Shown here: piece after piece, positions 11,493-13,925 of the stretch
Layout: each line of letters begins with the position of its first letter
Position numbering within the stretch: position 1 is the stretch's first letter
Assembly (NCBI RefSeq): GCF_033153115.1
Contig: NW_026889782.1
Location: 62,001 to 126,000, forward strand
DNA from: Saccostrea echinata
Taxonomy: Eukaryota
Direction: 5' to 3'
DNA length: 64,000 nucleotides
The notes under the pieces: model-generated
Seen by the model: only the letters and a program-made list of their open reading frames with translations
The model's database searches: none
What the model was told of the DNA's origin: nothing
Translations under genes and position numbers: made by a program

Positions 11493-13925
11493 ATGGATCA
11501 AGACGTGAGAATGAAGATCGCGATCATTGTCTGGTTATTTCCATTAAGCCTAGTTTGTGGAACCATTTTACCATGTCAATTGTGTACAGGAGTGCACGGG
11601 GTGTACACTTGTAGAGCTGCAACTACATGCGTGCGATTAATAAAGAATGAACTCGAGCCTGCGCCTGTAAGGGAAATCCGATTGTTCAGCTGCGCTGTTA
11701 GGATTGTCGGATGGAACGGACGACTGCCTTTAATAAGGGACAGGGACGGCAAAATTTGCCATCGTGAGTATTTTTTTTTAAATATCAACCCTTCTTACTT
11801 CATCTTATTTGATCCGCTAAGGTGTTTTTACTTATGAATTGGAAAAGTTGGAAGGCACCGTGGGAAAGAGACTAATCACGTGACTAAAGTAGACCCAATA
11901 GAAAGGAATGAAATTTTACTATGGAATGTGGGGGTCATCTCATAAGTCGCTTGAATTTCTTTTTTTAATATATATATATGTTTCCGGTAGTTATAGTAAG
12001 ATAATTCAGTGATTCATTTTGCCTTGCGTGTCGTGTATTTCACGCAATTTTGTAAGAAAACTACGTGGCAGAAAATATATGAAACGTTTGCTAGGTATAA
12101 AATTTGCAAATTCTATGTAGCCTAGAAGCGTAGATGTTACAGGCAAAATTGTTTATCTGTCCTTGTCTGACTCTGTGACTTGAGTTTTACACTAAGTCAC
12201 ATCATTCACTTACATTGTAAAATGTTTATCTTGTATTAGGGGATGTTTACTAGCAAATCGTTGTTTTATGCTAAAGCAAGTTTATCAATACTAGCAATCG
12301 TTGTTTTATGCTAAAGCAATATTTATGTAAGTATTTTTTTTAATTCATTTTATTTAACACTTTTTTTTGTAATTTCAGAGAAAACCCGGCCTACAGTAAG
12401 GACAACCCTCAGGATCCAAACAACAACTCAGCCTTCAGTCAGGACAACCGGCAGGATCCAAACAACAACTCGGCCTTCAGTCAGAACAACCCGCAGCATC
12501 CAAACAACAACTCGGCCTTCAGTAAGGACAACCCTCACGGTCCAAACAACAACTCAGCCTTCAGTCAGGACAACCCGCAGGATCCAAACAACAACTCGGC
12601 CTTTAGTCAGGACAACCCGCAGGATCCAAACAACAACTCGGCCTTCAGTCAGGACAACCCGCAGGATCCAAACAACAACTCGGTCTTCAGTAAGGACAAC
12701 CCGCAGGATCCAAACAACTCGATCGTCAGTAAGGACAACCCTAGCAATGAGATACAAGGGCAATACAGTGGATCACAGTAAGTGTTTCAGTTAGATTAAT
12801 TTTAATGTGTATGGAATTTCAGTGGACAAAGTAACACCCATATAATTTCCAATCATCTTTGAATAAAAGGTAGTATTAGTTTTTGCCAAGGAAAATTATA
12901 TTTTATGTAAAAGAATATAAATGATTTGTGGAATTACATAATTTGACAAAGATTATGCAATGCTCATTGTTCATTGTAATAAAACATACATAACAGATGT
13001 TGTGGTATTAAAATTAATTCAGGTATGAAGTAATCTTTTTATTGTAGGATCATTCAGACCAGATGATGATGATGATGATGACAGTCTCTTTGATGAGTCT
13101 ACAGAATCAGGTCAGCGTGTAATCATACTCTTGTGCATTAATATAGGGATTTGTATTTTCATTCTAGTAGTTGTGCTAATTTCTATCAAAGAATATCTTA
13201 AAAAGGTTGGAAGTAAATTTTAAAAAAAAAGAAGAAAAATGTGTCATCAGTTAGAAAAAAAAATATTTAAGAAAGAGAAAACCACCAGACATAAACCAAA
13301 GAAGTTACCCTCAACAACTGAAATAGAGTTGAGCAGAATACAATCTCTAATATCTTCTGAATCAGACAAATACTATGATTCTATATTTGATGCCTCCGAA
13401 GTTTAAATGATCTATGCAAGTTAACTGAAGTACAATATTGCATGTAGTTATTTTACTAAATTATTTCGAATGGATTTTAAATGGATAAAGTATAGAAAGA
13501 CAGCGATATGTGTAATTGATTTGAATAAGTAGTGGGTACCAGTTATATCATTATTTTGCTGAAATACTTAAAATATTTGTTAACAATATTTTTTTTTTGT
13601 ACTAGGGGTTTTAGTATGGGCAATTACCACCACATTGACCATAATCATCTACCTTCTTAAAAGATATTTAAAGAGATTCTGTATGTCCCATACAAGAAAC
13701 AGTAGTGACACTCCTGATACACACGAGCACATTCCTTTACCAGACCTTTCAGCACACCCACCTACCGATGCCACACCTGATGCGAGTCATGGAGTAGGTC
13801 AACCTTCCCAATCGACACCGGACACATCTAATTATAACACCCCACAATCCTCCACTAGATTATTACCTGATGCACCGGCACATAACACAAGATCGAAAGC
13901 AAAGGGAAAAGTTTTATTTCATTAA
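11493..13925 (+). CDS. Spliced type I membrane mucin-like protein (exons 11493-11763, 12379-12777, 13048-13110, 13606-13925; alternative read-through exon 13048-13406)
   Basis: Signal peptide (MKIAIIVWLFPLSLVCG), 6-Cys ectodomain, Thr/Arg-rich repeat stalk, poly-Asp patch, TM helix and tail. All junctions are GT-AG, phase 1 and frame-compatible. Confidence 0.75.
12390..12741 (+). repeat. 42-bp coding minisatellite, ~8.5 copies (VRTTRRIQTTTRPS)
   Basis: Repeats of GTCAGGACAACCCGCAGGATCCAAACAACAACTCGGCCTTCA within exon 2 of the membrane protein gene. Confidence 0.95.

Follow-up and report, generated by a model that had tools for sequence, protein, structure and literature searches.

A spliced gene that encodes a predicted single-pass type I membrane glycoprotein with a mucin-like stalk is a near-core gene of one oyster clade of Maverick/Polinton elements. 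In the window (the whole stretch of DNA that was analysed, 64,000 nucleotides long), it is carried by a 23.8-kb Maverick/Polinton, just upstream of the gene that encodes pPolB, a protein-primed DNA polymerase, and an internal donor leads to two alternative ends (forms A and B), each with its own transmembrane (TM) helix and tail. The analysis establishes the gene itself, the fixed slot that it occupies before pPolB, the two tails as conserved structure, the exchange of the cassette between elements and the conservation of its motifs. Beyond the preliminary description, which was made from the sequence alone, the analysis has revealed that form B is the core, that tail B holds TRSK and RxL words, that the promoter region holds E2F-like and E-box sites, and that the head is swapped. 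The family is undescribed, in that the literature searches, supplements aside, listed no description of it, and it is a variant of the viral accessory glycoproteins.

Gene structure, transcripts and close copies

The gene is made up of the following parts:

11493..11763, + strand: exon 1, coding a signal peptide (recognised by eye, about 23 aa) and a six-cysteine all-beta head, with donor GTGAGT
12379..12777, + strand: exon 2, a 42-nt repeat coding a Thr/Ser/Arg-rich stalk
13048..13110, + strand: exon 3, an acidic D7 patch that ends at a conserved internal donor
13111..13406, + strand: form A read-through, with TM-A at 13119-13187, a conserved KLPS..EL.R.Q block from 13302 and YDSI at 13374-13385
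13606..13925, + strand: last exon of form B, with TM-B at 13608-13658, a Pro/Ser/Thr-rich tail, TRSK at 13887-13898 and the RxL-type word KVLF at 13908-13919

All exon joints are in phase 1; beyond exon 3, the gene either reads on to 13406 (form A) or splices to 13606 (form B). The signal peptide, six-Cys domain, repeat stalk and D7 patch all lie where the preliminary description had placed them, and its coordinates for both forms hold as well: form A ends at 13406 and is interrupted by a single in-frame stop, at 13221, and form B passes from 13110 to 13606 into TM-B. Form B comprises 350 aa and has no internal stop, while the stop of form A falls at codon 282, about 11 residues past its TM. 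The assignment to type I mucin-stalk proteins is based on hydropathy and composition, namely a signal peptide, a Ser/Thr-rich stalk (41% Ser+Thr, 22% Arg) and one TM helix followed by basic residues; the best 19-residue hydropathy is 3.35 for TM-A and 1.96 for TM-B. No canonical polyA signal occurs between forms A and B. This layout goes beyond chance, because the exon phases fit, the AG of the B acceptor is in place in all 22 loci scanned (a scan that left aside L012, L014 and L056, where this acceptor is shifted or lost) and RefSeq homologs show the same layout.

Of the two isoforms that had been postulated, the transcript evidence, which is thin, bears on the form B junction. In one contig of run X2, guessed to be RNA, 13110 is connected in frame with the B exon; the contig has five additional letters, the same as those of L014 (one of the close copies described below) at that place, i.e., six bases upstream of the acceptor first proposed. 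The same run covers intron 1 unspliced and lists no joint for introns 1 or 2. In run X1 a contig starts exactly at 13604, which is where the spliced and unspliced paths would merge. Three polyA RNA runs left exon 1, exon 3 and the coding parts of A and B without any read, and what few reads they have close to the acceptor of exon 2 differ from the window sequence. Since a retained last intron leaves no junction after the form A stop, form A would escape nonsense-mediated decay.

Searching 1.84 billion proteins with a profile returned 54 matches; these and their cluster members include RefSeq entries, all predicted models and one possibly from the same genome as the window, that run from head through stalk and TM-B to the B tail in Ostrea edulis and in two Saccostrea species, S. 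echinata and S. cucullata, as well as one model from Crassostrea gigas that holds the head and the tail end with no TM. In O. edulis, isoform X1 (XP_056002201.1) has the acidic exon spliced to TM-B and isoform X2 (XP_056002202.1) skips it. Another model, XP_062610684.1, reads through the donor into TM-A, so that relatives have gene models for either tail form. Some oyster RefSeq genes labelled 'uncharacterized' or misnamed are, in consequence, homologs of an element-borne gene.

Six close copies are present in the genome, and every one of them is damaged somewhere. When the sister copies were compared at 13221, the in-frame stop proved private to the window copy (1/6), and since the other five lack it, it is either a lesion of this one copy or a mistake of the assembly at the T/A run. 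Among the copies open there is L011, which shares the insertion site of the window copy, is 99.3% identical to it and has lost its first donor. A different early stop interrupts tail A in L010; in L012, exon 1 contains a stop and both tail A and the B acceptor are shifted; exon 2 of L013 is frameshifted; and L014 has lost the B acceptor and holds an insertion in tail B. Form A is truncated or shifted in three of the six, and L013 and L014 keep the tail A frame by compensating indels.

The host element, the slot before pPolB and the exchanged head

The element and the neighbour of the gene are the following:

7605..31451, no strand assigned: Maverick/Polinton carrying the gene, with AGTAGT ends, terminal inverted repeats of about 280 bp (7605-7886 and 31202-31451) and a 6-bp target-site duplication
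15678..23130, + strand: pPolB, split in the window copy by an insertion of about 2.7 kb

The element was recognised as a Maverick/Polinton by its AGTAGT-ended terminal inverted repeats, by the duplication of a 6-bp target site, and by the pPolB, rve integrase, A32 ATPase and double jelly-roll (DJR) capsid encoded between the repeats. In Pfam, pPolB and the integrase score above the cut-off and the ATPase (E 5e-4) and capsid (E 4e-3) below it, the capsid call resting on a weak DJR match; from gene order, another gene is presumably the protease. The insertion in pPolB (18759-21468) has short inverted ends and is missing from sister copies. No membrane ORF of fusogen size is found in 7605-31451.

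Two further proteins of the element hold PC4 domains. On the minus strand, 28835-29854 codes a protein that combines a CARD and two PC4 domains, and an LxCxE-type word stands close to its end (about 28948); the protein is kept in related elements and is a candidate Oncoid-like protein. Also on the minus strand, the ORF at 30351-30881 has a PC4-like domain together with a strong TM helix and possibly encodes a membrane-anchored DNA-binding protein. Between them, a 78-aa minus-strand ORF (30091-30327), which occurs in distant Maverick clades too, weakly matches the PP1c-binding region of the GADD34/ICP34.5 type (E 0.0013, below the cut-off). The left arm holds an apparently spliced three-exon minus-strand gene (about 8581-9557) that is kept in L052, L062 and L068, and the two of its pieces that were scanned have no Pfam match. 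An N run (28681-28814) separates the integrase and CARD-PC4 genes.

The position of the glycoprotein gene is constant. In the 923-Mb genome searched for copies, 20 further elements were picked solely by capsid identity of at least 88%; the head was found in 13 of them, TM-B in 14, either in 16 and neither in four, and in those 16 the matches always lie upstream of pPolB on the same strand. Protein searches also revealed diverged heads elsewhere in the genome; of the nine such loci examined, all but L066 have Maverick genes within 20 kb, mostly with the head directly before pPolB. No homolog appeared in 20 stretches from distant Maverick clades, five of which show the start of pPolB. Some near-identical element copies may be redundant haplotypes.

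Heads and capsids have not diverged together. Across 18 elements (153 pairs) median identity is 28% for the head and 91% for the capsid. Between the window and L068, L118 and L119 the capsids are 98-99% identical and the heads only 29-35% (99% and 35% for L118), whereas L013, whose capsid belongs to another supported group, shares 92% of its capsid and 93% of its head with the window. This discordance indicates that the gene is exchanged as a cassette. Within four close pairs, pooled pN/pS for the head is 0.43 (18 non-synonymous versus 12 synonymous changes), with no positive selection on heads among them. Types whose heads are about 28% and capsids about 91% identical retain the internal donor as well as the acceptor of form B, and in many types an acidic exon with the same kind of donor precedes that acceptor; form B is the conserved core form.

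The head itself is a 67-aa all-beta domain with a confident predicted fold and six conserved cysteines, spaced about 2-8-6-18-23 in 50 aligned sequences. None of the exons and none of five full-length homologs had a Pfam family above the cut-off, and sequence searches against solved structures gave nothing better than E 0.1. The preliminary description had proposed a structural comparison of the cysteine domain, and this comparison matched no solved structure. The ESM Atlas gave a Ly6/uPAR three-finger lead at 0.83, and the structure matches hold no three-finger chain. Ly6/uPAR proteins have 8-10 Cys and a C-terminal CCxxxxCN word. The head resembles them as a small, secreted, all-beta disulfide domain that starts with CxxC, but its six conserved Cys, the lack of a CCxxxxCN end and the lack of a Pfam match set it apart, and membership by cysteine pattern was ruled out.

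Sequence words in the tails and the promoter

Tail B likely docks cell-cycle kinases and chromatin, to judge from its short sequence patterns. A TRS-type motif, often in the form P-[VI]-[SA]-x-R-T-R-S-K, ends all 15 intact B tails tested (shuffle mean 0.4), and an RxL-type word occurs in 12 of the 15 (shuffle mean 1.3); the set excluded L054, L058, L062, L104, L115, L131 and duplicates, the shuffles covered the last 30 residues, and the patterns, like those of the promoter, are short, were written after inspection and were counted in related rows. The T-R pair is invariant in alignment A3 of tail B. RxL ([RK]xL-hydrophobic) is a cyclin-docking word, and together with S/T-P sites, which are mildly enriched in B tails (74 versus 53 expected), it gives the tail the pattern of a cyclin-CDK substrate. 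The TRS-type motif agrees with the arginine-anchor pattern of proteins that bind the nucleosome acidic patch. Its spacing equals that of SPMASRLRG in MLV p12, while the hydrophobic residue that IE1 has three places before the anchor arginine is absent from tail B. According to the parts of the literature consulted, MLV p12 is a nucleosome binder in which S61, next to the motif, is phosphorylated (PMC6021111), and T485-R486-S487 of HCMV IE1 contacts the nucleosome acidic patch (PMC9040877). With these proteins and KSHV LANA, tail B would share a short arginine-anchor motif beside phosphorylated S-P sites, with p12-like spacing (PMC9040877, PMC6021111, in the parts consulted); p12, IE1 and LANA are, as described there, soluble viral proteins, whereas the oyster motif ends the inner tail of a predicted membrane protein.

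Two words recur upstream of the gene:

11427..11434, + strand: E-box-like promoter site, which precedes 13 of 16 heads (shuffle mean 1.6)
11466..11472, + strand: E2F-like site about 25 nt before the start codon, at 13 of 16 heads (shuffle mean 2.1, maximum 7)

The 16 heads in both counts include two near-identical row pairs. The E2F-like pattern occurs in 6 of 91 windows of the element. Further upstream, 10830-11201 is a dispersed repeat, RNA reads of which carry many unrelated flanks; it is common to the six close copies and missing in three diverged types.

Tail A, which likely serves sorting, keeps YDSI inside an acidic patch. Among four types, the block that ends in YDSIF shows dN of 0.14-0.25 against dS of 0.69-1.10, a dN/dS near 0.2 that is based on 27-28 codons bounded by conserved words, which biases dN downwards. 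The tail had been credited with a YxxI sorting motif and a C-terminal S-x-V PDZ-binding motif. The first stands, as YDSI is conserved; for the second, the four types end in SEV, SDI, SIF and SKM, so that the class I PDZ pattern of ELM (S-x-hydrophobic) is found in three of the four and strict S-x-V in one. What lies beyond the donor varies among types: read-through gives a second TM and a long tail in the window type, L062 and L104, a TM with almost no tail in L126 and L131, and a stop before any TM in L068, L127 and L132.

Possible functions and comparison with known systems

We tentatively favour, with somewhat less than even confidence, the reading that this is an accessory gene for an early, host-manipulating glycoprotein that acts in the manner of adenovirus E3, with a splice switch between a sorting tail and a cell-cycle/chromatin tail. 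The E2F-like and E-box sites would turn the gene on in cycling cells. The three-disulfide head, on its O-glycosylated stalk, would bind a host surface or luminal protein, other head types having other targets. The tail of form B would dock cyclin-CDK via its terminal RxL word, be phosphorylated at S/T-P sites and grip nucleosomes via TRSK, at the nuclear envelope or else once freed from the membrane by cleavage. Read-through of the donor would exchange this tail for the YxxI/acidic-cluster tail, drawing the protein and its target into endosomes, and in other types would yield a tailless or soluble decoy. The LxCxE-type word of the CARD-PC4 protein and the weak PP1-binding ORF, encoded by the same element, were counted for host manipulation.

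The closest analogues are the adenovirus E3 CR1 glycoproteins, especially E3/49K, which are described as early, heavily glycosylated type I membrane proteins (PMC11321000, seen in part). The likeness extends, on the same partial reading, to a non-enveloped Polinton relative, a highly polymorphic ectodomain, sorting motifs in the tail and a shed form. The oyster protein differs in its 67-aa six-Cys head, in having two alternative TM/tails from one donor, in the lack of a sequence or fold match, and in the cyclin- and chromatin-type words of tail B, none of which is mentioned for E3 in the parts of PMC11321000 consulted. Membership in E3 CR1 was ruled out by the lack of a Pfam family and of any solved-structure sequence match better than E 0.1; the gene product may work like an E3 CR1 glycoprotein, by analogy, without being one. 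The proposal of a cell-surface glycoprotein reminiscent of E3 in a non-enveloped element is thereby upheld as a fair functional analogy, in a Polinton with no membrane ORF of fusogen size, but not as homology; the surface location, and the immune shielding that it had also considered, are putative.

Accessory genes are known from related elements. The adintovirus/Maverick genes PLA2X, GasderminX, Cupiennin and Oncoid encode membrane-active or Oncoid proteins (bioRxiv 10.1101/697771), and vertebrate Mavericks have accessory regions and intronless core genes (PMC8097293). The oyster gene resembles them as a putative host-manipulating gene upstream of pPolB, and differs in that the parts of these sources consulted list no spliced signal-peptide/mucin/TM protein; their supplements may list such ORFs.

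A bolder and doubtful extension is that the gene represents an undescribed class of virus-encoded receptor that carries as its specificity cassette an exchangeable head, possibly with a new fold, signals through a membrane tail docking directly on cyclin-CDK and nucleosomes (through Notch-like release or envelope tethering) and has a splice-made decoy or endocytic antagonist. If it were true, oyster Polintons would have a real infectious, cell-to-cell life stage. What is at stake is whether the Polintons of animals live as true viruses, facing host defences beyond the nucleus; for such a life, a surface-type glycoprotein that is spliced, swappable and conserved in most members of a clade is the kind of gene needed. 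The head of no known fold offers a handle for ligand fishing, and the two short tail motifs are directly testable.

The main seat of form B might instead be the ER and the inner nuclear membrane; there its basic TRSK tail, under CDK control, would hold chromatin or element DNA as a tether or for egress; the adenovirus death protein is the comparison for such a role. Tail B, as the invariant part that resembles nucleosome-tethering peptides, and the TM-PC4 protein of the element would suit this role, but a long mucin stalk that bears a disulfide head of many swapped types typically serves recognition outside the cell and not anchoring in the envelope, and tail A holds surface-sorting words, so that we consider it unlikely.

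The swapping of many deeply diverged head types within one genome, on near-identical capsid backbones, could also reflect self-recognition or superinfection exclusion, the head type marking the cell and blocking or sensing particles of the same type while the tail relays to the cell cycle. Exclusion should nevertheless track particle surface proteins, and the capsids that are 98-99% identical carry heads only 29-35% identical; with no particles known, this explanation appears rather improbable.

It has also to be weighed whether form B alone is functional today, form A being leaky intron retention across what is left of a duplicated TM exon in decay. Many copies have a form A that is truncated or shifted or lacks its TM, and the RNA data cannot tell a retained-intron mRNA from DNA or pre-mRNA. 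However, the tail A block retains its dN/dS near 0.2 across four types, the frame is rescued in L013 and L014, a RefSeq model reads into TM-A, and most endogenous copies are broken somewhere anyway, all of which makes a mere relic quite improbable.

Still other elements of this kind carry membrane proteins of their own. According to the part of bioRxiv 10.1101/2022.07.12.499685 that was consulted, nematode Mavericks hold intron-containing cargo (proteases, kinases) in a variable region near one end, encode the 866-aa gB-like fusogen MFUS-1 and may be enveloped. The oyster gene shares with them a Maverick-borne type I membrane protein and intron-containing genes near one element end, but its product is 350 aa long and mucin-like, and the gene is near-core in its clade. 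If the oyster element likewise budded through membranes, the protein could be a virion envelope or attachment glycoprotein whose modular variable head, on its stalk, sets tropism. The lack of a fusogen-size membrane ORF, the location beside pPolB and outside the capsid module, and the E2F-like promoter sites make this decidedly improbable. That the gene is a captured host gene carried as neutral cargo, as its introns might suggest by comparison with the host-derived cargo of nematode Mavericks (same source, same part), is very improbable and largely refuted by its fixed slot in 16 of 20 elements, by coding constraint over saturated synonymous divergence and by the Maverick genes near eight of nine diverged loci (L066 excepted).

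The surroundings of the element are themselves repetitive. Arrays of a 156-bp tandem repeat in opposite orientation (228-1080 and 32600-36740) flank it outside its ends, and non-LTR retrotransposon fragments with reverse transcriptase and a GDSL-esterase/zinc-knuckle ORF1 lie at 52567-53151, 58327-59355 and 60848-62205. Most of the 96 capsid matches in the genome are grouped on four contigs, and one lies about 7.5 kb past the end of the window.
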